From Patescibacteria group bacterium (GTDB lineage Bacteria > Patescibacteriota > UBA1384 > XYA2-FULL-43-10 > 1-14-0-10-43-13), in NCBI GenBank assembly GCA_041649155.1, contig JBAZNP010000001.1:173808-237807 (forward strand): a stretch of 64,000 nucleotides of DNA, read 5' to 3'. The position numbers were made by a program, and so were the translations under genes. The notes beneath the pieces were generated by a model that made no database searches, was not told the DNA's origin, and worked only from the letters and a program-made list of their open reading frames with translations. Positions 8,138-27,908 of this stretch are shown in pieces. Each line of letters opens with the position of its first letter. Positions within the stretch are counted from its first letter, which is position 1.

Positions 8138-8213
8138 TCCCCGATAGCTCAATTGGCAGAGCGCTTCGCTGTTAACGAAGATGTTACTGGTTCGAGTCCA
8201 GTTCGGGGAGCCA
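8138..8213 (+). tRNA. tRNA-Asn (anticodon GTT)
   Basis: Cloverleaf by eye: acceptor TCCCCGA/TCGGGGA, anticodon arm CTTCG-CTGTTAA-CGAAG, T-arm ACTGG-TTCGAGT-CCAGT, encoded CCA. An extended -10 element (TGATAGAAT) lies about 40 bp upstream. Confidence 0.85.
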
Positions 8214-9674
8214 ATTCACATTTTTACTACAAAGAGCCATTGCATCAAATGGCTTTTTGTAATTCCAGAGTAGTTTTTTACCTCTCAACCTAAGGTTTGA
8301 AAGTACGAAATTGATAAGCTGTCTCTTTTCATCTAGTTCACAACTATCAAATAGCTCTACGGCTCTCTTTGCTAGTTCTATAATATAAAAACTCGTTATT
8401 AGGAACTCTTTATCAGCAGTAGTATGATTGCTCATTTTGCCATTCAAGAACTCTTGTCTGTCCTTCAATTCTAGGAATATTTTGTCATATTGGCCGTCAG
8501 TAATACGACCCTTCAAGTTATCCAAATAAGCTTTTTGGACCATACCATCAATTTCGTCAAATTCCTTTCTGAATTGGCGTATTGATGACTTGTATACATC
8601 TCGTTCAGAATAAAAGGTTTTTTCCATTTCAGTTTTTAGTTCTTCCACAACATCATCAGGCATTACTAAGCCAACAAACGCTTTTCTGACTTGAGACAAT
8701 AGTTCTTCCTCTGTAACCCTTTCAGCACCGCATTTGCCCTTATATTGGTTGCAGATGCAATAATTGATACCTTTAGTTGGGTCTTTACCAACCATACAAT
8801 CACAATGGTCGCATTTAACTAGTCCTCTAAATGCAAACGGCTTGCTTGCATACTTAATTACAGTATGAGATTTTCCCTCTCTTACAGCTTTGCATTTTTC
8901 AAATAGCCATTTTTCAATAAGTGGTTCATACCTATGAGGATGAAGTTTGCCGTTATAAAGCATAACCCCATAATAAAAAGGGTTCTTTAATATTTGGTCC
9001 AGTTGGCTTTTTATTACTGGCTTTCCTGCTTTAGTGCTATTTCTTAAACCCTCGTCTTTCAAAATTTGAACTATCTGCTTGAGGCCATAGTTTCCAGTTG
9101 AGTAGAGTTCAAATGCTTTTTTAACCAAATAACCCCTATTTTTATCAATAACTACTTCTTTCCTTTCATTGATATCAGCATTAAGGTAGCCGATAGGTGC
9201 TTTCTCTGGCCATTCGCCATTTCTTATTTTTTGCTCAATTGACCTTTTTACATCATCAGATAATCTGTTCAAATATTGCTTAGCAAGAAAGACCTTTGCT
9301 TCCCACATAAACATTTGGTTACCAGTAGCTTCTGCATTTATATAGAAACCCTCTTGAACAAAGTGTATTTCCAAGCCATCATTTCTTCTTAATTCGTCAA
9401 TATCAACAGCGTCTCGGAAATTTCTCGTTGCTCTGTCTACATTTTGGCAAAGCAAAACCCTAACATCCTTATTTTTCTTCAGATAGTCGAGTACTTCTTC
9501 AAATTTTCTTCTTATTTTGTGTCCAGCACTTTCAGAGAAAGAAAATTCTTTATCAATCTTAAAATTATTTTTGAGGGCATATTCTTTTAGTCTTCTTATC
9601 TGTGCAGGGAGCGAATGCCCCATTTCTTCCTGCTCTTTTGTCGAAACTCTTGCCAGAATTATAGCTTTTCGCAT
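8184..9674 (-). CDS. large serine recombinase (integrase)
   Basis: N-terminal resolvase domain (ILARVSTKEQ with the catalytic Ser, and VDRATRNFRD), a recombinase domain, and a Cys-rich Zn ribbon (CDHCDC...CICNQYKGKCG). The last 10 codons are encoded by the complement of the tRNA-Asn 3' half. Confidence 0.85.
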   Translation of the reverse strand: MRKAIILARVSTKEQEEMGHSLPAQIRRLKEYALKNNFKIDKEFSFSESAGHKIRRKFEEVLDYLKKNKDVRVLLCQNVDRATRNFRDAVDIDELRRNDGLEIHFVQEGFYINAEATGNQMFMWEAKVFLAKQYLNRLSDDVKRSIEQKIRNGEWPEKAPIGYLNADINERKEVVIDKNRGYLVKKAFELYSTGNYGLKQIVQILKDEGLRNSTKAGKPVIKSQLDQILKNPFYYGVMLYNGKLHPHRYEPLIEKWLFEKCKAVREGKSHTVIKYASKPFAFRGLVKCDHCDCMVGKDPTKGINYCICNQYKGKCGAERVTEEELLSQVRKAFVGLVMPDDVVEELKTEMEKTFYSERDVYKSSIRQFRKEFDEIDGMVQKAYLDNLKGRITDGQYDKIFLELKDRQEFLNGKMSNHTTADKEFLITSFYIIELAKRAVELFDSCELDEKRQLINFVLSNLRLRGKKLLWNYKKPFDAMALCSKNVNWLPELDSNQ

Positions 9675-9724
9675 AATAACCTTTCTTATTTATAATTATA
9701 CGTTACTTATAGTCAACAATAAAG

Positions 9725-10822
9725 TTATGTCCCGTCTAAATATTCGCTTATTTTAAGCATTTCAAAGCTACTCAACTGGTTTGATACTTGTTCAAATCCT
9801 TGAGCTTTAACGTTTTTAGGCAGATTTAGAGAGAGTATGTCCTTTTTAAGCTTAGTAAAAGTTTTACCAGATGATGCTTTCTCTAGTAGTCTTTTGAATC
9901 TATCCGCACCCTCCTCTTTGATAACCCTAACAGACATCGCTAACGCCAGTGCTGTAATCGGTCTAAATTTACGGCTCTCTAAAATTTTTTCAAGAACAGT
10001 AAAATCATCGCTGTCCTTTATAAGTGCTAATTGCATATTTGAAGTTATCTCTTCCCAATAATGATTTAGCACCTGTTGAGATAGCTTTTTTGAGAACATA
10101 TTTTCTAAGGTCAAATCATTAGTAATGTTGAGAGTTTTGAATAATTGTTTAATCTTTGCCCTTTTCACTAATCTAATTTCAAATCTCAACACTTCCATCG
10201 GTCTCTGTTTCTTCTTAATTTCGTCAAATAAATTAAGCTGAATTGCACTCTCTTTCTCAAAAGCTCTTTTTTCGCTTATCTTGGATTGCTCCATATCCTT
10301 AATCTTGTCGTAAATTGCAATTTCAAATGAATTACAGTGAAAATGCAAAATATAACCAAAATTTCTAAAGCTATTTTGTTGAATATCAAGGCGTTTAGTT
10401 AGGTCAATCTTCTTAAGTTCATTCAGAATCATTGTACTTTTCCAGTAATTGCTTAGAGCTATATTTTTAGAAAAATCTATTTTTGACACATCAGCCGTTC
10501 TCAAAAAAGAAGGAAAAACCCCAATGCCCATAATCTTTAATCTTTCGGCAAGAATTTTGACGAGACTGTCGAAATCAGTTTCATTAAGTTCATCAAAGTT
10601 GTTACCGAACAGCATTTTTGGTGCTGAAAATTCAATCTTTAAGAACAACTTTGAACCGCCCCGCTTATATGGGGTCAATCTTGGCAAATAAACATCGCTT
10701 TTTCTGCTTCCGTTATAGGCGAGTTTGTCAAAGCCATTGTTAGAGGAAATTGGGATGAACTTAGTGTTATCTGTTATCCAAAATTCATTCGGCTTCAAAG
10801 TTATGGCTATTGTATCTATCAT
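9725..10822 (-). CDS. putative replication-initiation protein (Rep_trans-like), or hypothetical
   Basis: About 365 aa with no clear motif. The assignment is only by general resemblance to rolling-circle or phage Rep proteins and by island context. The start is uncertain and overlaps spoVG. Confidence 0.3.
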   Translation of the reverse strand: MIDTIAITLKPNEFWITDNTKFIPISSNNGFDKLAYNGSRKSDVYLPRLTPYKRGGSKLFLKIEFSAPKMLFGNNFDELNETDFDSLVKILAERLKIMGIGVFPSFLRTADVSKIDFSKNIALSNYWKSTMILNELKKIDLTKRLDIQQNSFRNFGYILHFHCNSFEIAIYDKIKDMEQSKISEKRAFEKESAIQLNLFDEIKKKQRPMEVLRFEIRLVKRAKIKQLFKTLNITNDLTLENMFSKKLSQQVLNHYWEEITSNMQLALIKDSDDFTVLEKILESRKFRPITALALAMSVRVIKEEGADRFKRLLEKASSGKTFTKLKKDILSLNLPKNVKAQGFEQVSNQLSSFEMLKISEYLDGT

Positions 10823-11316: not shown

Positions 11317-11991
11317 TTATGGTCTCAAATGGTCTTTGTCTTTATTATTGACTCTTACCATTAAGCTCAAATTACCGCAGTTATTGACTAATTCGACAGG
11401 TTTTAATTTTGTTCTAGTCCTTATCTTCTTAATCCTGTCGTTTATAATAATATTATTTAGTGTTTTATCATTTGCGTCAGATTCGCTTAAACCGAGTTCG
11501 CTCAATAGCTCCTGCCTTGAAAGGTAACCGTTATTAAGAACTATCTTATTGAATATCTTGTAAAGATTTTTATCTGTTTGAAATTTGAACGGATTGTCCT
11601 TGATATAACCAATCCCAGAACTAGGACTATACCAGTTTGTAGTTTCTGGCTCGGCAATCTGTTCTTTCTTAGTTTTGCCTTTTCTTAATTGTTCAAGGGT
11701 TAGTCTTCGTATTTCCGCTTCCTCTCTCTGTTTTGTAAAATCAGGGGCAATAGCCGTATAAGTTACTGGCTCAGGGAAATTAAATTGGGGCATCTCTATT
11801 TTTCCAAGGCGTTTCAAGTTTTCTGCAGCTGAGGCTGCCGCATCTTTTACGGCAGACAACATAGTTCCAGAAATAATATCTTTTGGGATTATGCTGTTTG
11901 CTTTTACTAATTCGCCAAGACCTGAAAAATTATCCGAGGATTCGGGAAGATTATCTAGGTCTAAATCAAATTTTTTACTATTTTCGCTCAT
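11317..11991 (-). CDS. hypothetical protein
   Basis: 224-aa ORF on the island with no recognisable motif. Confidence 0.4.
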   Translation of the reverse strand: MSENSKKFDLDLDNLPESSDNFSGLGELVKANSIIPKDIISGTMLSAVKDAAASAAENLKRLGKIEMPQFNFPEPVTYTAIAPDFTKQREEAEIRRLTLEQLRKGKTKKEQIAEPETTNWYSPSSGIGYIKDNPFKFQTDKNLYKIFNKIVLNNGYLSRQELLSELGLSESDANDKTLNNIIINDRIKKIRTRTKLKPVELVNNCGNLSLMVRVNNKDKDHLRP

Positions 11992-12016
11992 ATTATTACT
12001 GCTTTAGGTTCGTTTT

Positions 12017-12898
12017 TTAGAACTTCATTTCAGGCACTTTTTTAGTTTTAATTCTATCATCCATAGTATCTATATTTTCTAGTAGTTGCTTATCAGGAAT
12101 TTTTATTGCTATCTCTTTTGATAAATTAAGGTATTTCCTAGCTTCTCGGTATCGGTACATTGTCCTCAGCTGATTGGCATAATTATAAAGAGCTAGTGCT
12201 TTTTCTGGCAAATCGTTATTTTCTTCTGAGATACTAATCGCTTTGAGAAAAAACTTATCAGCTTCTTTGTGTAGTAATTTCAATCCTTTTTTGTCTTTTC
12301 TATTATACAAGAGATGCTCTAATCTTTTCTCAATCAACCAATGTTGTAACCCATTCTTTCCAATTTTATTGTATCGTAATTCCATTGAGCGATAGCCGTA
12401 TGCTTGGCCAATCATTGAATAAACAGTTGACATAAGAGCAGAATCTTTTGTCTTATCTGCTATGCCCTCTGCTTCCTTGAGACTTTGTGTTGCATTTTCT
12501 TCTAGGTCACTTAGCTCTTGCTCAAGCGTTTCATATTCAACTTGTTCTCTTTCAAGCGAAAACTCAAACCATTCAGGCGAGAGTTTTATTCTTTTCATTC
12601 TGTCTATACTTCTTAGTTTCTTGTGAAGTGAGAGCAATCCTTTATAACACAAAGCGATAGCTTTTATATCCTTGTCTACCAATCTGTTGGACAAGCGTAT
12701 TGTTTCGTTGGTTATGACCAAAAGCTGTTCTGTATCTCTCACAGGGTCCAAAGAACGATTAAGCTCCAGACCACAATTTAATCGCATAACCACATTAGAA
12801 GAAGAATTAAAAATATCAAGAAACATCTTTGCTGCTTCCTCTTTATGCCCAACTACGATCATTGCTTCGGCTTGGCTAAATTTATCTTCTTCGGACAT
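12017..12898 (-). CDS. hypothetical protein (helical, possibly TPR-like)
   Basis: 293 aa. Overlaps the upstream gene by 17 nt, which suggests an operon. Confidence 0.45.
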   Translation of the reverse strand: MSEEDKFSQAEAMIVVGHKEEAAKMFLDIFNSSSNVVMRLNCGLELNRSLDPVRDTEQLLVITNETIRLSNRLVDKDIKAIALCYKGLLSLHKKLRSIDRMKRIKLSPEWFEFSLEREQVEYETLEQELSDLEENATQSLKEAEGIADKTKDSALMSTVYSMIGQAYGYRSMELRYNKIGKNGLQHWLIEKRLEHLLYNRKDKKGLKLLHKEADKFFLKAISISEENNDLPEKALALYNYANQLRTMYRYREARKYLNLSKEIAIKIPDKQLLENIDTMDDRIKTKKVPEMKF

Positions 12899-13829
12899 AT
12901 TTGTATCTTATACTTAATAAAAATATTCTAAGTTTATTGGGGATTACCTTTTTTAGAAAAAATTTGATATCCAGAGGGTATTTGCTAAACCAAATTCTTT
13001 TTAAGGCAGAGGAGCTGGACACAAAGTAGTTACGGCACGACCCTCTAATCATTCTGTTATCTTCCTGAACACGTTTATCTGAAATTTCAATGTATCCTCT
13101 TAAATCGTTCCAGCAGAAACAAGCCACAATATCAGTAGATAGCGGTATTGTCAGCTGGATATTCTTTTGACCCAAGCCATACCCATAAAATCTTTGCCAC
13201 TGCAAATCAGGATTAAACAAATGGCAAGGTTCATCAGAAGTTATGAACTTAGCTTTACCTTTTTTTGCTGAGCATAAGAAAGATAAGTTCATATGAACGA
13301 GCATTTCTGTTATATCTGGCAACAGATTTGACAAAGTTAACTTATGAGCGTCTGTCTTATAGCTTCTGAGTTCATTGGATTTCTTCGGAGGTATATTATG
13401 AGCAGCTTCCATCCGCTCTGTCATTTCAATAATCTGGTCTAAGTTCTGTTCAATGTTTTCCTTTTGACCTTTAGTTCTTAGCATCATTGCGGCAACAAAA
13501 GCGCACAATATAATATGTTCTTCATTAGACAAGGGTTTTCTTTTTGCAATCTTATCCTGAAAAATGAGGGCATACTTATCTTCCAGCTCAGAAAGAGAAA
13601 TTTCAATTGAGTAATCATAAACGTTATTGGCACAAGAAGCTTTAGGGGATTTTAACGAGTAAATATGTTTGCTAACAAAAGCTTTCTCAACTTTCTTGAG
13701 TTCTTTTGTCTTGCCGTCTTTGCTAAATATCCATATCCGCGGGTCGTTGCCCGACTGACTTGGGTCTGAAAATTGCTTAAGATAGCATTGAGAAATATAA
13801 TGTTGTCGCTTAGGATTACCCATAAGCAA
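12882..13829 (-). CDS. DUF4238-like protein
   Basis: The N-terminal RQHYISQCYLKQF motif resembles the DUF4238 signature (HYvPqfYLrxF). Confidence 0.4.
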   Translation of the reverse strand: MLMGNPKRQHYISQCYLKQFSDPSQSGNDPRIWIFSKDGKTKELKKVEKAFVSKHIYSLKSPKASCANNVYDYSIEISLSELEDKYALIFQDKIAKRKPLSNEEHIILCAFVAAMMLRTKGQKENIEQNLDQIIEMTERMEAAHNIPPKKSNELRSYKTDAHKLTLSNLLPDITEMLVHMNLSFLCSAKKGKAKFITSDEPCHLFNPDLQWQRFYGYGLGQKNIQLTIPLSTDIVACFCWNDLRGYIEISDKRVQEDNRMIRGSCRNYFVSSSSALKRIWFSKYPLDIKFFLKKVIPNKLRIFLLSIRYKYVRRR

Positions 13830-15478: not shown

Positions 15479-15527
15479 CAGTCTTCAAAATTTGGCTTTA
15501 CTAAGCTTTTTTTGGTATACCAAGATT

Positions 15528-16094
15528 ATGATGAATTTCTCAAACAATGTTTTTGGACCGCAACCGCCTAGGTTCTTACCGATAAAACCGCCAAAGCGGA
15601 AAGTTTTTATTAGCTTTCATCACGCCAATGACCAACAAGCTTACAATATATTGAAGAGATTATTTTCTGATAAATACGAGGTGTTCGAGGACCATTCGTT
15701 AAACAACCAGCTAATCAATAGCCAAATAGCCGAAAATATTGACCGAGCAATACGAGAGCGTTTTATAAAAGGGTCTTCAATTACAATTGTTCTGTGCGGT
15801 GAAGAGACCCACAAAAGAAAATATGTTGATTGGGAGATAAACTCAACATTACTACACGAACACGCATTGCTCGGAATTGTTCTACCGACAGCTACAAAGA
15901 ATGTTCAAAACCAGCACATTGTTCCAGACAGATTGGCTGTGAACGCAAATTCTGGCTATGCCCACTGGGAGCTGTGGGATAATTGTGCTGGAAGTGCAGA
16001 CAATATAAATATGGCAATTGAAGTGGCATTGTTAAATAGTAAAAACAAAAAGCTACTAGACAATTCTCTTCCTAAGATGCATAGGAATTTATGA
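15528..16094 (+). CDS. TIR-like domain protein (DUF1863 / ThsB-like)
   Basis: KVFISFHHANDQQ and KYVDWEINS motifs typical of MTH538/TIR-like domains. Overlaps the downstream gene by ATGA. Confidence 0.55.
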   Translation: MMNFSNNVFGPQPPRFLPIKPPKRKVFISFHHANDQQAYNILKRLFSDKYEVFEDHSLNNQLINSQIAENIDRAIRERFIKGSSITIVLCGEETHKRKYVDWEINSTLLHEHALLGIVLPTATKNVQNQHIVPDRLAVNANSGYAHWELWDNCAGSADNINMAIEVALLNSKNKKLLDNSLPKMHRNL

Positions 16095-16516
16095 AGAACG
16101 ATGAAAAAATAAAGCATCTAGAGTTCATTCAAGGCGTCATCAACCGTTTGGCCAATAACTCCTTCTTGATTAAGGGATGGCTAATAACAATTACTTTAGC
16201 TGGACTGAGCTTTTATCTGACTCAAAAGAAGACCACCATTCTACCAATTCTATTGGCAACAGCAATTCTTTTTTGGTTTTTGGATTCTTATTATCTTAGA
16301 CAAGAGCGATTGTTTAGAAGATTGTATGCCGATGTGGTAAAAGGAAAAATAGAGCCAATCTTTGATATGGATGTTTCAAGATATCAAGACAAAATCCAAA
16401 ACTCATTTGCCACAATGTTCTCTTATCCCAATTGCTTTTTATATATTGCGATTATTGCACTAATATTGGTTCAAATTGTGCTGTCTCTCAAAATTGAGAT
16501 AAGCATAAAATTCTAA
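16091..16516 (+). CDS. small multi-TM protein, SLATT-like putative membrane effector
   Basis: 141 aa. An N-terminal helix followed by 2 to 3 hydrophobic TM segments. Translationally coupled to the TIR-like gene. Confidence 0.35.
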   Translation: MKNDEKIKHLEFIQGVINRLANNSFLIKGWLITITLAGLSFYLTQKKTTILPILLATAILFWFLDSYYLRQERLFRRLYADVVKGKIEPIFDMDVSRYQDKIQNSFATMFSYPNCFLYIAIIALILVQIVLSLKIEISIKF

Positions 16517-18159
16517 CGAGTTAAAGTTAATTCGGGTATTCTCTTGAGAAAAGCATACTCGGACAGAACTTTAATTTCGTTATTTAATTGCAGAATTGAA
16601 TCATAGTATTCAGTTCTGAACTTATACACCAAGGGGAGCCATAGTTGCGATTTTATAAAATGAGCTTGTGATTCACCTTGTTGAGTCTCAACTTGTGGTA
16701 AAGAAAGCAGTGTTTCAAACAATTCAGTTGGCACTGCTTTTTTGATTTTCCTATTTTCGACTATTATCTCGTTCCAAAATAGGTCAATATACGCTCTTTT
16801 TCTTTTTGGACTTGCCGTCAAATATGCCTTGAATACATCCTCTGCTAAAAACATTAGCTCTTCAAACACCCGTGTGTTATCAGCTCTATTTACTTGAAGC
16901 TTGCCTAGTTTCTTTTCTACAACTTTCAGCTCGTTCTTTATTCTTGTGGTTTGTCGGATATAAGTTTCACTACCAATTACTCTGTTGCCAAGGTCTTCTT
17001 CATAGTTAGATCTCTGCTTTTCTAGCTTGTTTTGCTCGGACAACAAGTTGTTTCTAGCAATATCAATATGATTATGATTTTGCGATAGATATTTTTTTGC
17101 CTGAAAGACTATTTTTCCAATCAGCCGTTTGGGTAATTGAAGATTTTTGAATAACTCTTCTACCATTTTCTCCAAGTCCTTAGTGCTTATGTTCTGTAAT
17201 TTATTTGAGTGAACAGAGCTACTTGCGGGACAATGATAATACGCTTTTTCTTTAGCGCCGTGATGCTCAGCGGTGTAATGCCGACCACATTTCCCACATT
17301 TTATATAACCGCTTAAAAGAAATTGATGTTTTCTTTTTCTGTCGACATATTTGTTGTGTTGCTCTAAAATTTCATTGCAAGTTTCAAAAGTTGTTTGATT
17401 TATGATTGGCTCGTGCTTTCCTGGATAAATTTCACCTTTGAATTCAATTTTTCCAGTATAAAAAACTTCTTTAAGAATGTTGATCATCGCTTGCTTCCCA
17501 ATTTTGTTGCCAGTTCGTGATCTTAAGCCTTCCTCAAACATAATGTCGCACAGATTTTCAACAGAATATGATCCGGTAGCAAATAGCTTAAATGCTTTTT
17601 CAAGTAATGGTGCGACTACCTTATCTAGTGCTATAATATTTCTCTCAAAACCACTCGTTACTGTTTCATTAACCACATTCTTATAACCTATTCGTGCAGG
17701 ACCAGCCCACCAACCTGCTTGAATCTTCTCCATCATTGAAATACTAGTTTTTCTGCCTGTTATCTTTGGGGTTAGTGCATTAACTGCAGCCAAAATTGAA
17801 TCCATAAATCTACCCTCGGGTGAGTCATCTAACATAGGCTGATTTATTGATCTGATCTTCGTTCCAGATTTTAGTAGCATTGATTTAACCGCGAAATGTA
17901 GAGACTCATCTCTAGCCAATCGGTCAGTATCAATAACGTAAACGTAATCAACAGAGTTATTCTTACAATAAGCAATCATTTCTTGCAGTCCTGGGCGGTT
18001 CGGATTGCTTCCAGATAAACCTTCATCTTGAAAAACTTCAAGCAAGTTGCCTCCGTCTTCGGCAATAGCTATCTTTCCTTTGCTCATTTGCGTTGGGATA
18101 GAGCAATCCTTTTTGGCCTGTTCGTCAGTGCTTACACGTCCATAAATTACACAATTCAT
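16513..18159 (-). CDS. large serine recombinase (second copy)
   Basis: IYGRVSTDEQ with the catalytic Ser, VIDTDRLARDE, a recombinase domain, and a Zn-ribbon Cys cluster (CGKCGRHY...HCPA). Confidence 0.85.
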   Translation of the reverse strand: MNCVIYGRVSTDEQAKKDCSIPTQMSKGKIAIAEDGGNLLEVFQDEGLSGSNPNRPGLQEMIAYCKNNSVDYVYVIDTDRLARDESLHFAVKSMLLKSGTKIRSINQPMLDDSPEGRFMDSILAAVNALTPKITGRKTSISMMEKIQAGWWAGPARIGYKNVVNETVTSGFERNIIALDKVVAPLLEKAFKLFATGSYSVENLCDIMFEEGLRSRTGNKIGKQAMINILKEVFYTGKIEFKGEIYPGKHEPIINQTTFETCNEILEQHNKYVDRKRKHQFLLSGYIKCGKCGRHYTAEHHGAKEKAYYHCPASSSVHSNKLQNISTKDLEKMVEELFKNLQLPKRLIGKIVFQAKKYLSQNHNHIDIARNNLLSEQNKLEKQRSNYEEDLGNRVIGSETYIRQTTRIKNELKVVEKKLGKLQVNRADNTRVFEELMFLAEDVFKAYLTASPKRKRAYIDLFWNEIIVENRKIKKAVPTELFETLLSLPQVETQQGESQAHFIKSQLWLPLVYKFRTEYYDSILQLNNEIKVLSEYAFLKRIPELTLTR

Positions 18160-19938: not shown

Positions 19939-20187
19939 CTAGCTGTTATGCAGCCTTGATTTCAAAGTTCGCTGAGCGGAATAATATTGAGTCGTTATAA
20001 GTTTTAATCGTCCAGAAAAATGAGCCTCTGCAGCTGTCTCAATTCCGTTTTTTCTCTGAAAAACAAACGCTACCCGACCATCGCCAGAAGTTCGGTCAAG
20101 AGATAAGAGATTATAGCCGAGAGCCATTAGAGCGGAGGCATTCGCAAAGTCACAAGTTTGATAAAAGTCGCTTTCAGAAATGTTCAT
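19939..20187 (-). CDS. small hypothetical protein
   Basis: 82-aa ORF. Weak evidence. Confidence 0.25.
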   Translation of the reverse strand: MNISESDFYQTCDFANASALMALGYNLLSLDRTSGDGRVAFVFQRKNGIETAAEAHFSGRLKLITTQYYSAQRTLKSRLHNS

Positions 20188-22681: not shown

Positions 22682-23740
22682 TCAATATTTCTTAATTGCT
22701 CTTTTAACATACTCATCCACTGATATTTTTTTGGCTTGAAATCCAGTCCAAGCGCTTTCCAAATCTTCGTTTTTAATAAAGATATCCTCTTTCAACCCCA
22801 ATCGTATCGGTGATTTGAATCCATTCCTTTTTCTTATTTCTTCAAGAATTTGGGTATTGAACTGCTCTATTAAATAATTTCTAATATCATTTAAGAATTT
22901 TGAATAACGATTACAAATATAAATATCATAATAGTTAGTAACGCTTCCTTCTTGATACAAATGGTTAAATTTCTTTCGTATTCTGCCTCTTGATATGTCT
23001 TGTCTTCTTTTTACTTCTTGAAAAGTTATGTGACGAGCTCTCTCGACTCCCAGTGAATGATTGTCCGGCTCTGCCCAGCCTAATGACTGATTCACACTAA
23101 ACTGTAAAAATTCAGTAGCGACAGAAAGCTCTCTTGAAGATTGTTGCGTAGGCGACTCTTTGGAAAAAGGGTATTCCACAAGAAAAATATCTTCGCTACC
23201 TACGATCGTCGTCTTTGGTCGGGCTTCTTTGTTCGCCAAGTAGGTCCAAAGGCTATAAGAATGCTTCACAGATCGCAATCTGTCTGCTTTTTTTCTGATC
23301 TTGATCGTTGCTCCGTCGAGGTGGTGGAAGGTAGGCAAAATATAAAACGAATTATTCACCTTCTGTTGTTTCCATTCAATAAAATATGCCGAGAAGTGAT
23401 CAACCAGAATCCCAAAAAAAGAAAATTCAAAAAATTGAGCAAGATCATTCGCGCCTGAATAAATCCGGGATTCATTTTCTAAAAAATATTCCATCAAATT
23501 GCTTCTAAGTACGGCATTCTTGTTTTCTAAATCAAAATAGTCTGAATTATATGTTACATATCCAGGACGGCCAGCGGGTTTTGTGAGCGGAGGATAAAGC
23601 TCGTCCTTAAATCGGTTTGTTTCTATGAATAATTGAGTTCCATCCCTAGTTGCTTTTTCTCTTGCATCAAAACCTTTTACGAAACGAAGAAATTCGTCTC
23701 GTTGGCCTCGCCTTAATTGATCTTTATTTCCGTTTCTCAT
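22682..23740 (-). CDS. hypothetical protein (partner of the 838-aa membrane protein)
   Basis: 352 aa. Overlaps the upstream gene by 17 nt. Confidence 0.45.
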   Translation of the reverse strand: MRNGNKDQLRRGQRDEFLRFVKGFDAREKATRDGTQLFIETNRFKDELYPPLTKPAGRPGYVTYNSDYFDLENKNAVLRSNLMEYFLENESRIYSGANDLAQFFEFSFFGILVDHFSAYFIEWKQQKVNNSFYILPTFHHLDGATIKIRKKADRLRSVKHSYSLWTYLANKEARPKTTIVGSEDIFLVEYPFSKESPTQQSSRELSVATEFLQFSVNQSLGWAEPDNHSLGVERARHITFQEVKRRQDISRGRIRKKFNHLYQEGSVTNYYDIYICNRYSKFLNDIRNYLIEQFNTQILEEIRKRNGFKSPIRLGLKEDIFIKNEDLESAWTGFQAKKISVDEYVKRAIKKY

Positions 23741-26240
23741 TGACTCCTTTCAGAATCTTGATGATTTTCGCAACTTGTTCTCGCTTTTCCAACCACTCAA
23801 CAAAATCGTCAAGTACAAATTCGAGATCATAGTAGAACATCTCGTCAGATCCAATTTTTTTGACTAGACTGCTTGGGTGTTCTACAGTTTCCGTGTAATA
23901 GCCTCCGCCATTCCCATCCCAAACTTTAGGTAATCTGCTAATTTCCTGAGTAATGTTTTGATAATGCCTATTAAATCTTTGCATTTCGTCTTCTATCAAC
24001 CCAAAAGTACTATTAAACCCTAGAGCGCTTTTGACTTTATTTGCAGATGCTAGTGCTTGATACATAAAGCCTTCTTGATAAAATTTACCATCAATATTTT
24101 CTAAGAATTCCTTAATGTAAAACCGGTCATTATCAAGTTCTGAAACTAACCACGTGAATGCTCCAATAATGAGCGGAAGCCTGAATAGATGCAGGATCTC
24201 TTGTTGATCAGTAATCTTGTCTCGCAAAACAATTAGTGTATATAAATAAGACTTAATTAAAAATCTGAAAAGTTTTTTGTCACGATGAACTAAGGCTGTC
24301 AGCAGTCCCTTCTCTAAAACCTCTCGCAACTCCACTTCTTTGACTAGGGATTGTGGTACTAATAAAATTATTTTTAAGGACAGATTGATGGAGTCAATAA
24401 AATGGTCCGCCAAATCCCACTTCTCTAGATAGATCAATCTGCCGAGCCAGGTATATTGTATTTTTAGTATATCAGCGACATTTCTCCAATTTTGCGACCC
24501 GACATCAGCTCTCAGCATTTTGTTGGATTGCTGCAATATTTCTTCAATTTTTTTCTCTACGACGGGGTTTGTTTTTTTGAGGTATTCTTTTATTACCTCA
24601 TCAACAAGCCATTCTAAGGGCGTAATTACCTTGCCCTCGACTAGTTGCTCCGTCTCAATTCGCTCCCTGTAATCCAAAAGAATATCTCTAGCCGTTACTG
24701 GCAAGTCAAAAGCTGATAACTCCTTCATAGAGATGGCTTTATTTTTTTTGACTAGAAGCCTTGTCGTTTTCTGAATCACGTCGACGGGATACCCATCAAG
24801 CACTACTTGACCGTAAGCAAAAAGAATATTCATATACACAGCAGAAAGTTTTTCATCGGATTTAACCAGATTATACAAATCACAAAATAACTGCCATATT
24901 TTATCGTTAATGTAATATTCTTGATGCTCAAAGGCGCTCGGCTCAACCTTTTCGTTGAACCCTAGTTTATTTTTGGCATACTCACCGCATAAAATCTTTT
25001 CATAGGCGCTTAATAGCCCTGATAGAATCTCCTTGTTAGAATTAGTCTCTGTGTCATTTTGGAGCTCTGTAAAAAAATAACAAGCCGTGTCCTCTAGCCA
25101 ATTAAAATCTGGCGCTGTAGTTAGTAGTGGCCCAGTGTTTTTAGATTCATATGAGGACTTAATAGGATACATCAATCTATTCGAGGCGCTTACGGGTTCA
25201 AATCTTTGTGGAAATGCCCAGGGGCGATTTCTATCAATGTACCTTTTTGCTCTCAAGTACTTCTGTAACACGCTAGAAAAGAAAATCGGACCAGAGGAAG
25301 CATCCTCATAGTTTTTATTCCGTGTTAAATCATAAAATAGAGCACTTCCCAAACTCAGCAAGCGAGAAATGCTTTTTTGTGAAGCTAACACGATTGTCCA
25401 ACTGGTAAAAAAGTTTGAATACAAACGAAAACTTTTAACCCTTTTGTCTTTATATAGGCGAAAACTGGATACAAAAGGATTGTCGGATGCATTTACAATT
25501 CGTATGCTTTGGTAAGCCTCCTGGTACATTCTTCTGAACAGACTCAAAGGTTTAAGAGAAATCACATAATGGTCTTTGAAGATTATGACCCCGCACAATG
25601 ACATTGTAAATAAGAAAATTGATATTCCGAATGATATTACAGGAAGGCTCTTCGTAATTCCCAAGAAAAGAAGTGAAAATAATGAAAAAAGGATAGTCAC
25701 AACCAAAAGTCGCATAAAATGATTGCCAACTTTTTCTTTATTTACATACTCAGTTATCTTGTCAGAATATTTTTCCGTTGAAAGTTGAAATCCAACAGCA
25801 TATAACGCAAATATTAAACCAAGTAATGCTCCTGTGGCACCGACAATTATCTCCAATGTTAATTTTGCAATATTGCTAAAATCAGCAAGATCAAAAGTGT
25901 CTGCAATAAAATTGTGTCTAAAAAAACCTCCGTGACTTATAAATGCCAAATCTAATAGGAAGAGAAAACAAGAAATAATAAGAAAGTAGATGATAAGTTT
26001 GGATGAATTCTTTAGAATCTCATAATCAATCAATATACTTTTCAATTCTTCTAGTCTATTGAATTTCCAGACTCGCCAGTGCTCTTCTTCTTTTTTGTAA
26101 AAATAATAAAGAAAACCGGCAACCAGATCAAAAGTCCTAGCCAAAAAATTCCTTCGTTCTTCCCCAAAGTTCGGAAGGACCCTATCTTTAGATTTTCTAG
26201 CTTTGCGATAGAAAAATCTGATTGTATTTATGATAATCAT
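23724..26240 (-). CDS. large multi-TM protein of unknown function
   Basis: 838 aa. Several N-terminal hydrophobic helices, then a cytoplasmic domain of about 600 aa with no known motifs. Confidence 0.5.
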   Translation of the reverse strand: MIIINTIRFFYRKARKSKDRVLPNFGEERRNFLARTFDLVAGFLYYFYKKEEEHWRVWKFNRLEELKSILIDYEILKNSSKLIIYFLIISCFLFLLDLAFISHGGFFRHNFIADTFDLADFSNIAKLTLEIIVGATGALLGLIFALYAVGFQLSTEKYSDKITEYVNKEKVGNHFMRLLVVTILFSLFSLLFLGITKSLPVISFGISIFLFTMSLCGVIIFKDHYVISLKPLSLFRRMYQEAYQSIRIVNASDNPFVSSFRLYKDKRVKSFRLYSNFFTSWTIVLASQKSISRLLSLGSALFYDLTRNKNYEDASSGPIFFSSVLQKYLRAKRYIDRNRPWAFPQRFEPVSASNRLMYPIKSSYESKNTGPLLTTAPDFNWLEDTACYFFTELQNDTETNSNKEILSGLLSAYEKILCGEYAKNKLGFNEKVEPSAFEHQEYYINDKIWQLFCDLYNLVKSDEKLSAVYMNILFAYGQVVLDGYPVDVIQKTTRLLVKKNKAISMKELSAFDLPVTARDILLDYRERIETEQLVEGKVITPLEWLVDEVIKEYLKKTNPVVEKKIEEILQQSNKMLRADVGSQNWRNVADILKIQYTWLGRLIYLEKWDLADHFIDSINLSLKIILLVPQSLVKEVELREVLEKGLLTALVHRDKKLFRFLIKSYLYTLIVLRDKITDQQEILHLFRLPLIIGAFTWLVSELDNDRFYIKEFLENIDGKFYQEGFMYQALASANKVKSALGFNSTFGLIEDEMQRFNRHYQNITQEISRLPKVWDGNGGGYYTETVEHPSSLVKKIGSDEMFYYDLEFVLDDFVEWLEKREQVAKIIKILKGVNEKRK

Positions 26241-26353
26241 TACTCTTGTTTTAGCACTTCCAGATCAGCTAAACAAGACAAAACGCTAGGCATAACTCCT
26301 TTTCCAGATTTTTTGATATGATCTAATTAAGGAGTAAAGAATGAAAGAGGCAA

Positions 26354-27278: not shown

Positions 27279-27908
27279 ATGACTATCTGGGATCAAATTT
27301 ATAAAAACCATCAAAAGGGTGGCGATGCTTGGGCAACTTTATCAGAAGGGATTGACCCAAGATTTATTGACCTCGTCGACAAAGCAGAACTCAAATTGAG
27401 AAGTGCTTTTGATATTGGTTGCGGTACAGGTAAGTATTTAAGATATTTGCAATCTAGGGACTTTCAAGTAGCCGGCATTGATAGCAGCGAAACTGCAGTT
27501 GAAATGTCAAAGAAAAGCCTTGGAGATTCTGCTGATATTGTTCTTGCTGATATGTACGACTTCAAAATACCAAAGAATAAATATGACCTAATCTTATCCG
27601 TTTCCACTCTTCATCACGGGACGAAGGAACAAATTCAAGGCTTGATCAGCCAGATATGTGATAATCTGTCTATTGACGGGAAAATCTTCATAACTTTGCC
27701 AGACATTGAGTGCAATAAAAAATGGAATACTTTCAAAGACGATAAAGAAATTGCTCCGGGAACATATTCGCCTCTTTCTGGACCAGAAAAGGGTTTGCCG
27801 CATAGTTTCTTTTCTAAAAAGGAAATTGAATCGTTATTCTTAGGTTTTAGAGACGTTAGCCTTAGTATTGATAAAATAGGGCGATGGTTTGTGGTCGGGA
27901 CAAAATAG
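27279..27908 (+). CDS. class I SAM-dependent methyltransferase (TehB-like)
   Basis: Motif I is DIGCGTGKYLRYL. About 210 aa. Confidence 0.7.
   Translation: MTIWDQIYKNHQKGGDAWATLSEGIDPRFIDLVDKAELKLRSAFDIGCGTGKYLRYLQSRDFQVAGIDSSETAVEMSKKSLGDSADIVLADMYDFKIPKNKYDLILSVSTLHHGTKEQIQGLISQICDNLSIDGKIFITLPDIECNKKWNTFKDDKEIAPGTYSPLSGPEKGLPHSFFSKKEIESLFLGFRDVSLSIDKIGRWFVVGTK

Follow-up and report, generated by a model that had tools for sequence, protein, structure and literature searches.

Kiwa is a two-gene operon of defence islands in which a membrane protein with about four transmembrane (TM) helices, KwaA, is followed by a soluble partner, KwaB (DUF4868), and no enzymatic motifs are obvious in either. 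Much of bacterial diversity is accounted for by CPR/Patescibacteria, whose genomes are tiny and carry few recognised defence systems each. The authors of a defensome survey suggest that defence systems have been missed in CPR lineages (PMC12259885). Functional metagenomics has returned LdgA and Dallas (DdgA), which are described as CPR-restricted and as unlike any known protein in sequence or structure (Rodriguez-Rodriguez et al. 2025, PMC12366544). In the same report, Dallas and San Juan give an abortive-infection phenotype, the San Juan protein SjdB has four TM segments and CPR-derived defences of uncharacterised fold act in E. coli by abortive infection (PMC12366544). The gene pair analysed here, A-B, resembles Kiwa in that a protein with about four TM helices is followed by a soluble partner, again with no obvious enzymatic motifs.

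Both genes lie on the minus strand of the window, by which we mean the whole 64-kb stretch of DNA analysed. Gene A (23724..26240, -) begins with ATG and encodes an 838-aa membrane protein, and gene B (22682..23740, -), also with an ATG start, encodes a 352-aa soluble basic partner (pI 9.4). They overlap by 17 nt at 23724-23740, and within the junction (23724..23750, -) an SD-like AAAGGAG at 23750-23744 is located inside A, 3 nt before the B ATG at 23740, an arrangement that is consistent with translational coupling. Independent gene callers gave the same 838-aa and 352-aa products in the public assembly, and the overlapping pair described in an earlier, sequence-only reading of this DNA was recovered with exactly the same coordinates. 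Because full-length homologs of both proteins are present in other genomes at 24-50% identity, A and B are real genes rather than chance ORFs. A possible 17-codon ORF upstream of A (MPSVLSCLADLEVLKQE*; 26240..26293, -), whose TAA overlaps the A start codon (TAATG), is doubtful and has no equivalent in other loci. A scan for promoters and terminators told us little, with 28 promoter-like sites where 18 were expected and no terminator after B.

Protein A is composed of an N-terminal cytoplasmic helix, four TM helices and a cytoplasmic alpha-solenoid of ~620 aa. Where about five TM helices had been counted by the sequence-only reading, hydropathy and the AF2 model agree on four (residues ~83-101, 131-149, 178-196 and 202-220). 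These follow an 82-aa N-terminus rich in K and R, which implies an N-in/C-in topology; by hydropathy the outward loops are only ~29 and ~5 aa long, and both large domains are predicted to face the cytoplasm. A has 17 full-length homologs (26-47% identity), and the TM domain (residues ~83-220; 25581..25994, -), defined by hydropathy, the family alignment and Pfam, is its best-conserved part (GLIFALYAVGFQLS...KYS). Conservation peaks at TM2, and G141, F144, A145, Y147, V149, G150, Q152 and S159 are invariant in the family alignment. Such strong conservation of TM2 suggests that the membrane core of A may do more than anchor the protein.

The same region carries the sole homology detectable for either protein in the family libraries. 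Residues 114-250 of A match Pfam DUF2254 (PF10011) at 35.1 bits, above the curated gathering cut-off of 28.8 (E 8.5e-9), and 17 of 17 A family members match it as well (best E 7.7e-11). The match takes in TM2-TM4 and spans positions 40-168 of the 368 in the model; the rest of the model is unmatched and is replaced in A by the solenoid of ~600 aa, which the Pfam model lacks. A is therefore not free of recognisable motifs; its remaining ~590 residues have no Pfam match. To our knowledge no function has been assigned to DUF2254 ('predicted membrane protein'; InterPro IPR018723), and the match therefore offers no mechanism for A. It has been described as a membrane family that AlphaFold predicts to be knotted (PMC11184937).

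The solenoid itself (residues ~280-838; 23727..25403, -) is modelled confidently within an all-alpha model of A (pLDDT 78, pTM 0.72). Its structural matches are generic solenoids, and a fold search with the AF2 model returned no enzyme-like match for this domain. It is acidic across the family (median pI 5.9) and has invariant residues at K332, W341, K361, E365, W381, E383, E531, E535, T540-P541, E701, E752 and H788-P-S790. By-eye inspection of the A family alignment found no Walker A, HEPN Rx4-6H or HD motif, and 'RYH' and 'HPS', two conserved motifs, are at odds with a HEPN reading. Neither a catalytic nor a pore-forming motif could be recognised.

Exhaustive HMMER searching of 1.84 billion representatives identified 95 clusters of B, all of them stand-alone proteins of 330-390 aa. 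The family alignments show conservation of an N-terminal D15-x-F-L, W123, E233, T268-x-Y-Y-D272, R287, F294-N-x-Q and N306. Structure prediction, which succeeded for A, gave for B a model (from a 6-sequence alignment) with a pLDDT of 42.5, too poor to be included in the fold search. B had been called soluble and unassigned, and this is borne out: it has no match in Pfam, NCBIfam or PADLOC and no family among PDB sequences. A Phage_portal (PF04860) reading of B was set aside, as the match appears in only 2 of 62 members (E 0.0065) and a B-family profile found no portal protein among PDB sequences at E<=10.

Both proteins were scanned with Pfam, NCBIfam and PADLOC, and 79 family members with Pfam and PADLOC. 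PADLOC-DB v2.0, which includes PDC candidates, gave no match to A or B at E<=1, and for the 79 family members the only matches at E<=0.1 were isolated and at chance level, CARF3 (0.0047) and Cas9 (0.029) in one member each; weak Phage_portal and VbhA matches among family members were likewise rejected as chance-level. Nothing below E 0.27 was found among PDB sequences with the profile of either family. At the level of sequence, neither A nor B belongs to any characterised family.

A Kiwa-like division of roles is one way to read such a pair. A would act as a membrane-embedded sensor and scaffold that responds to an attaching phage, to entering DNA or to a perturbed membrane; B, once released or activated, would be the effector on phage nucleic acid or replication. 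Kiwa likewise has the TM protein first and the soluble protein second and is placed in defence islands, the cytoplasmic domain of A has the fold of a non-enzymatic scaffold and a basic B (median pI 9.2 throughout the family) is compatible with nucleic-acid binding; the neighbourhood evidence described below serves this reading as well as the one we prefer. However, Pfam searches of 62 B members and the PDB profile search found no nuclease, helicase or known DNA-binding motif in B, PADLOC and Pfam gave no KwaA or KwaB (DUF4868) match, and the concentration of conservation at TM2 of A, polar residues included, would be left unexplained. We consider this reading quite unlikely.

The check for co-occurrence proposed with the sequence-only reading gave a clear result. 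In all 30 assessable unique loci B comes immediately after A and has the same orientation, and in the most divergent B cluster the C-terminus of the preceding, overlapping gene matches the A profile (E 4e-8). The overlap between the two genes is 4-23 nt long in 16 of 18 loci; in the other two a gap of 1 nt separates them. Further support comes from their co-divergence (Mantel r 0.96, a value reached by 0 of 2000 permutations) and from mean identities that are equal for the two proteins (37.7% and 37.8%), and the acidic cytoplasmic domain of A (pI 5.9) is complementary in charge to B (pI 9.2). A and B form a genuine module, in which a conserved operon encodes a membrane protein together with a soluble partner. 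In about half of the loci a variable third gene, for example one for a double zinc-ribbon protein ('C'), directly follows B. Conserved synteny does not extend beyond A-B, and the flanks are variable.

What surrounds the operon across the family points to defence, with known defence genes and recombinases adjoining the homologs, in our judgement, far more often than would be expected of a random gene. Within 10 kb of the pair, at least 18 of 34 loci, and 15 of 22 in a better-annotated set, carry a recognised defence gene; these counts are a lower bound, since the labelling of loci was seed-based, and have no formal background rate. A majority of loci with a defence gene within ~10 genes or 10 kb is what guilt-by-association looks for, the size of the enrichment not being established without such a background. 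Adjacency by chance is inflated here by the high density of restriction-modification (R-M) genes per Mb in CPR genomes (PMC12259885). For 136 neighbours taken from 12 loci the top Pfam families were ResIII, Resolvase, N6_Mtase, HsdR/HsdM/HsdS, MmeI, N6_N4_Mtase, ThsB_TIR and AAA_21, and PADLOC matched MTase and REase genes among the neighbours of A-B loci. Restriction systems of types I, II, IIG, III, ISP and IV are represented, together with AbiEii, TIR and DUF4238 genes; labels of individual loci include HaeII R-M, type IIG with a PLD-SNF2 helicase, AbiEii, GmrSD, XhoI, AAA_13, DUF4238, type I, type III (EcoP15I-like), MmeI, type ISP and ParB-MTase. R-M cassettes swap beside A proteins that are 92% identical. 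Only housekeeping or uncharacterised neighbours were found at four loci (L008, L021, L050 and L051).

A large serine recombinase is also present within 10 kb of the pair in 10 loci and directly adjoins B in three (L004, L016 and L029), as would be expected if the pair served a selfish element, either as an addiction or stability module in which a toxic A is neutralised by B, or as an entry or superinfection-exclusion device of integrative elements mobilised by serine recombinases, or of prophages, in CPR bacteria. The probable translational coupling of the two genes would suit such a function, as would the decayed copies, with A split in L008 and C split in L010, and the copy on an IMG/VR-classified contig that carries a ParB-methyltransferase. 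Yet at many loci (L002, L015 and L031 among them) there is no recombinase and R-M genes directly abut A in the same orientation, and searches of 50,697 cultured phage records and 72,556 plasmid records gave no match. The stretch of the 'viral' contig examined yielded no identifiable phage structural genes (2 of 4 neighbours tested had no PDB match), and this copy has the look of an integrated element next to cellular ClpC. A type II toxin-antitoxin module was rejected, as 838 and 352 aa are far above the ~100-aa scale of such proteins and no TA domain was found in Pfam or PADLOC. We regard a selfish-element function as very unlikely, and since exclusion and defence overlap functionally it is only partly distinct from the reading we prefer.

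In the window itself, PADLOC identified a TIR system, PDC-M50, together with a DUF4238-Pers gene, 6-10 kb from the pair, so that the PADLOC search recommended at the outset did find predicted defence genes in the island while matching neither A nor B. There is a large serine recombinase 4.5 kb from the pair, a second recombinase abuts a tRNA-Asn, and GC is slightly lower over 5-28 kb. It is plausible that the pair lies inside a mobile element, as had been proposed; the recombinases, the tRNA and the GC agree with this part of the proposal, while no att-like repeats turned up when 7-30 kb was searched for direct repeats and the element boundaries are not demonstrated. The methyltransferase that had been taken as an adjacent sign of defence does not serve as one. 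This gene (27279-27908, +) is 1 kb from A, on the opposite strand with another ORF between, and encodes a class-I SAM enzyme of the small-molecule type (Methyltransf_25/11, DIGCGTG motif) with no (D/N/S)PP(Y/F/W) motif. It is not recognisable as a DNA methylase and does not count as R-M evidence. The island markers are instead the PDC-M50 TIR system, the DUF4238 gene and the two recombinases.

The A-B module is close to exclusive to Patescibacteria/CPR. Of 185,579 species genomes, 15 carry the family; almost all are Patescibacteria, and they are scattered over several CPR classes. Restriction to one lineage might instead reflect a role outside conflict, such as envelope homeostasis, transport or the epibiotic lifestyle, with the defence neighbours produced by a general clustering of accessory genes. 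The DUF2254 core belongs to a widespread membrane family (PMC11184937), and Mur ligase, GroEL, IF-2, UvrA and ClpC flank some loci, both of which would be at home with such a role. Against it stand the rarity and scatter of the family, the absence of any kept synteny except A-B and the swapping of neighbouring R-M cassettes, and domains that face the cytoplasm, with outward loops so short, argue against contact with a host cell. Homology to a transporter or housekeeping complex, or conservation in a non-mobile context, would have told against the original proposal, and neither was found; the nearest hint of a transporter in A was ABC2_membrane (E 0.026), which is below its cut-off, and A has no PDB sequence relative. 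A non-conflict role seems highly improbable.

Taken from its genomic context, A-B is a credible candidate for an undescribed defence module, and on balance we judge, by a small step beyond even, that it is a defence system of some kind. The anti-phage or abortive-infection profile first proposed for the pair survives in this form, resting on the conserved operon and its defence and recombinase neighbours; the methyltransferase argument falls away, and PADLOC offers no match. Our tentative proposal, which we hold with clearly less than even confidence, is that A and B are obligate subunits of a mobile module directed against phages or other mobile elements, in which the solenoid and B would sense and the DUF2254-type core would be the membrane effector. 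A would span the cytoplasmic membrane and keep both of its termini inside the cell, the acidic alpha-solenoid would bind basic B at the inner membrane face, and the solenoid-B complex would recognise an infection cue. The signal would pass to the conserved, polar-residue-bearing DUF2254-type four-helix core, which would perturb membrane integrity or potential and so abort the infection, and the variable third gene after B, such as the double zinc-ribbon gene, may add or change specificity. The division of labour between A and B is a more doubtful part of this proposal, and the idea of an effector core is without precedent because DUF2254 itself has no known function. A bolder version, which we think unlikely, makes A-B a CPR-private anti-phage system whose DUF2254-type four-helix core is a death or dormancy effector gated by the alpha-solenoid and a novel-fold B, with interchangeable third genes tuning specificity. 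If true, this would be a new class of effector in bacterial immunity, in a lineage with few known systems, and would give a first functional handle on thousands of DUF2254 membrane proteins. The genomic evidence is unusually clean, with complete linkage, co-divergence and repeated placement against swapping R-M cassettes, and at 3.6 kb the operon is compact and therefore amenable to heterologous expression.

Among described systems, Kiwa differs from A-B in showing no sequence relation through KwaA, KwaB or DUF4868 (PADLOC and Pfam), in the size of its membrane protein, A being ~4x as large as KwaA with a big cytoplasmic solenoid, and in host range, which for A-B is CPR only. The TM effectors of CBASS, Pycsar and Thoeris, and RexAB, likewise combine a membrane protein with a helical core and a cytoplasmic component in defence islands or mobile elements, and membrane disruption, the output of TM-effector abortive infection, is also the output proposed for A-B. 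Unlike these systems, the A-B operon encodes no cyclase or TIR signal enzyme, PADLOC detects no homology, and the candidate effector in A is fused to a very large solenoid. PDC-M50 (TIR + M50A) is, like A-B, a computationally predicted defence candidate and shares the island in the window; its proteins are unrelated to A and B, and it is relevant only as an island marker. The library behind LdgA, Dallas and San Juan had an average insert of 2 kb, so the 3.56-kb A-B operon is unlikely to have been captured in it (PMC12366544). Compared by description only, A-B shares its CPR restriction with LdgA and Dallas and a protein of four TM segments with San Juan.

To examine the pair encoding an 838-aa membrane protein (A; 23724..26240, minus strand) and a 352-aa soluble partner (B; 22682..23740, minus strand), we collected homologous loci from other genomes, metagenomes and IMG/VR (given L numbers below). 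By word-indexed search, A had only 17 homologs, at 26-47% identity, and B had a single one besides itself. Reading of the genomic contexts revealed an unannotated 347-370-aa gene directly 3' of every A homolog, and these genes can be aligned end to end with B, at 24-49% identity. When A and B HMMs were run on all fetched loci, B followed A on the same strand in 30/30 unique loci whose contig extends beyond A, bearing out the two-gene operon that a sequence-only reading had proposed and wished to see checked by co-occurrence. The genes overlap by 4-23 nt in 16 of the 18 junctions examined and are separated by 1 nt in the remaining 2. Exhaustive HMMER comparison of the B profile with 1.84 billion cluster representatives gave only 95 clusters, all stand-alone 330-390-aa proteins or their fragments, with no B domain fusions among them. 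Even the weakest cluster (P0117) has an overlapping gene in front of it, the last part of which fits the C-terminal end of the A profile (E 4e-8), HPS motif included. Across 28 loci, the pairwise identities of A and B are correlated (r = 0.96, Mantel; reached by 0/2000 permutations) and their means are equal (37.7% and 37.8% for the two proteins), indicating that A and B form a true module, inherited jointly and diverging together.

In the window, the ORF coordinates first proposed for the pair proved exact, including the A/B overlap of 17 nt, and independent gene callers arrived at both products in a public assembly from this organism. The B sequence is identical (100%) to that of 'hypothetical protein WC536_01115 [Patescibacteria group bacterium]'. 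Inside A, 3 nt upstream of the B ATG, is an SD-like AAAGGAG (23750-23744), its position being consistent with translational coupling of the two genes. A has no SD of its own. A 17-codon upstream ORF (MPSVLSCLADLEVLKQE*, 26240-26293, minus strand) has GGAG 2 nt ahead of its ATG and ends in a TAA that overlaps the A start codon (TAATG); it could serve as a coupling leader for A and is not conserved in other A-B loci. The next gene past B is convergent and 8 nt distant. In about half of the loci, B is followed on the same strand, within 35 nt or with a 4-nt overlap, by a gene whose family varies. One such family, C (361-485 aa), has four conserved CxxC motifs and only sub-threshold zinc-ribbon Pfam matches, and is probably a double zinc ribbon. 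C lies right after B in L007 (11565-12650), L008 (3710-5167), L009 (5639-7084), L012 (13464-14630), L024 (13510-14958) and L010 (9283-10440, split); in L013 a homolog (8738-9832) lies on the other strand, upstream of A, and in L034 a 79-aa C remnant follows B. Other third genes belong to a 195-197-aa family (L006, L014), a 451-aa family (L025, L041) or are singletons, including a DUF4268 protein. No C homolog was detected in the window even at E<=10. Since the window carries no third gene, A-B is the core of the module, and what occupies the third position seems to be exchangeable.

The module has a narrow distribution. Among 185,579 species, each represented by one genome, 15 A-B loci were identified, nearly all of them in MAGs with the label Saccharibacteria, Parcubacteria, Paceibacterota, Doudnabacteria or Patescibacteria. 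A single locus (L011, CAYTRS010000002.1) is labelled 'uncultured Bdellovibrionales', the others being from the Candidate Phyla Radiation (CPR); this A protein matches the one on JGI metagenome contig L035 at 100% identity, and the label could stem from misbinning or from a rare transfer beyond CPR. A-B was absent from 50,697 cultured-phage records and 72,556 plasmid records. The pair is present on one IMG/VR contig, with a serine recombinase 90 nt downstream, a ParB-fused methyltransferase upstream and a cellular ClpC 6 kb off, and this contig looks like an element integrated in a host genome. Decayed copies also occur, with A split into 594 and 183 aa in L008 and the third gene split in L010. 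Overall, A-B is essentially private to CPR bacteria.

Many of these loci have defence genes nearby. Precomputed Pfam labels beside the pair comprise HaeII restriction-modification (R-M) with a C5 methylase; a PLD-SNF2 helicase, an MmeI/Eco57I-type IIG enzyme, NERD and an integrase; AbiEii, EcoRI methylase, GmrSD-HNH, DUF2726, XhoI and Eco57I; AAA_13; Zeta toxin; and DUF4238. Among 136 neighbours from 12 further loci, the commonest families were ResIII (6), Resolvase (5), N6_Mtase (4), HsdR/HsdM/HsdS (3/3/2), N6_N4_Mtase (3), MmeI (2), ThsB_TIR (2) and AbiEii-like AAA_21 (2). PADLOC matched type I and II MTase and REase models in A-B neighbours, and seed-based labels, together with sequence matches in the PDB, contributed type I, type III (EcoP15I-like), MmeI, type ISP/LlaBIII-like and ParB-MTase genes. 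A recognised defence gene lies within 10 kb in at least 18/34 unique loci and in 15/22 of the better-annotated set, both being raw frequencies and lower bounds. Ten loci have a large serine recombinase at most 10 kb away, in 3 of them immediately next to the pair. Only housekeeping or unclassified neighbours surround L008, L021, L050 and L051; strong as it is, the association is thus not universal. L011 and L034, whose A proteins are 92% identical, share a nearly identical pair and downstream C5-methylase-like gene, whereas the upstream cassette is swapped, type I HsdM/HsdR in one and a PLD-SNF2 helicase with an MmeI-like enzyme in the other. Such behaviour is that of a defence hotspot and shows directly that CPR genomes exchange defence cassettes. 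In L002 (1056-7998), L031 (28-5390) and L034 (3448-9878), genes for a PLD-SNF2 helicase (~1060 aa) and then an MmeI/Eco57I-like type IIG enzyme (~1250 aa) are found directly upstream of A, on the same strand and with a gap of <=42 nt. The A proteins of these three loci are only distantly related, and the arrangement may be either a recurrent four-gene unit or a product of mere hotspot proximity.

The methyltransferase near the pair in the window (27279-27908, plus strand), previously taken to support a defence role, is a small class-I SAM enzyme of small-molecule type that lacks DNA-methylase motif IV and is therefore not R-M evidence. Its homologs lie 1-4 kb from the pair in L010 (3420-4106) and L020 (15270-15692), a recurrence that may be due to common flanking synteny and not to function. 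The island markers sit on the opposite side of the pair. Two large serine recombinases, one of 548 aa (16513-18159) and one of 496 aa (8184-9674) that abuts or overlaps tRNA-Asn (8138-8213), suggest two adjacent or nested integrative elements. Directly beside the 548-aa recombinase, the PADLOC candidate system PDC-M50 is present in full, with two genes, a ThsB-like TIR gene (15492-16094, plus strand; Pfam ThsB_TIR E 3.6e-22, PDC-M50B E 7.5e-15) and a 141-aa PDC-M50A gene (16091-16516, plus strand; E 8e-39) that overlap by 4 nt. A DUF4238 gene ('DUF4238-Pers'; 12882-13829, minus strand; Pfam E 1e-30, PADLOC E 5e-13) is 9 kb from the pair; in L010, an unrelated locus, another (11384-12340) is separated from the pair by 2 kb. 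The gene for a small DUF5659 protein (19939-20187, minus strand; also L006, 2914-3156) is placed between serine recombinase and cargo genes in both loci and may belong to a common backbone of such CPR integrative elements. From about 28.7 kb on there are MacB/ABC/HlyD transporters, a sigma factor, a primase and an alanine racemase, and G+C (36% for the genome) is slightly lower over 5-28 kb. The proposed location inside a mobile element is plausible but, as no att-like repeats were found over 7-30 kb, not demonstrated.

Hydropathy places four TM helices in A (about 83-101, 131-149, 178-196 and 202-220), rather than the five or so initially counted. Together with an 82-aa K/R-rich N-terminus (18 K+R) ahead of TM1, these imply that both termini are inside (N-in/C-in) and that the outward loops are all short. 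Pfam DUF2254 matches residues 114-250 with a score over the curated cut-off, covering only model positions 40-168 of 368, and the same partial match is present in 17/17 A family members. This DUF2254-type TM core is the sole, and partial, family membership that holds for A-B. The only substantive literature mention that we found of DUF2254, an uncharacterised family, is as an AlphaFold-predicted knotted membrane family (PMC11184937). In a 17-homolog alignment, the best-conserved segment of A is TM2 and the following loop (GLIFALYAVGFQLS..KYS), with Y147, Q152 and S159 invariant; the cytoplasmic part has scattered invariant charged or aromatic residues, including E531/E535/T540-P541 and H788-P-S790. 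The cytoplasmic domain is acidic (median pI 5.9 across the family) and B is basic (median pI 9.2). B has no Pfam, NCBIfam or PADLOC match, no recurrent weak match among 62 family members scanned singly and no PDB sequence relative at E<0.27. Its AF2 model, from a 6-sequence alignment, is poor (pLDDT 42.5), and tentatively assigns mixed alpha/beta structure to the N-terminal half and long helices to the C-terminal half.

Obligate pairing, apparent translational coupling, complementary charge, rarity with patchy spread, decay, carriage by recombinase elements and a position flush against diverse R-M systems together argue that A-B may well be an anti-phage or anti-MGE module. The anti-phage proposal keeps good evidence from context and loses its methyltransferase argument. 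A selfish function, in addiction or exclusion, is possible. A CPR-specific membrane role outside conflict is possible as well, but is disfavoured by the extreme rarity of the family, the orientation of both large domains to the cytoplasm and the lack of conserved synteny. If A-B is a defence module, the acidic A solenoid would pair with basic B as a sensor complex in the cytoplasm; this complex would govern the conserved, polar helical core of DUF2254 type, and the outcome would be membrane perturbation (abortive infection). We favour this scheme because conservation is strongest in the core and not in the solenoid; nearly as likely is the reverse, Kiwa-like scheme, in which A is the sensor, at the membrane, and nucleic acid is the target of B.

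PADLOC gave no homology of A or B to Kiwa, to the TM-effector Abi systems or to any other v2 system or candidate. A 2025 functional screen reported LdgA and Dallas as Patescibacteria-restricted defences of unknown fold and San Juan as a system with a 4-TM protein, from a library with an average insert of 2 kb (PMC12366544). Set against the 3.56-kb A-B operon, that insert size makes identity with LdgA, Dallas or San Juan unlikely. A membrane protein with a soluble partner in a defence island is an already known kind of architecture; here, though, both families are undescribed as defence components, and the module they form is essentially confined to CPR.
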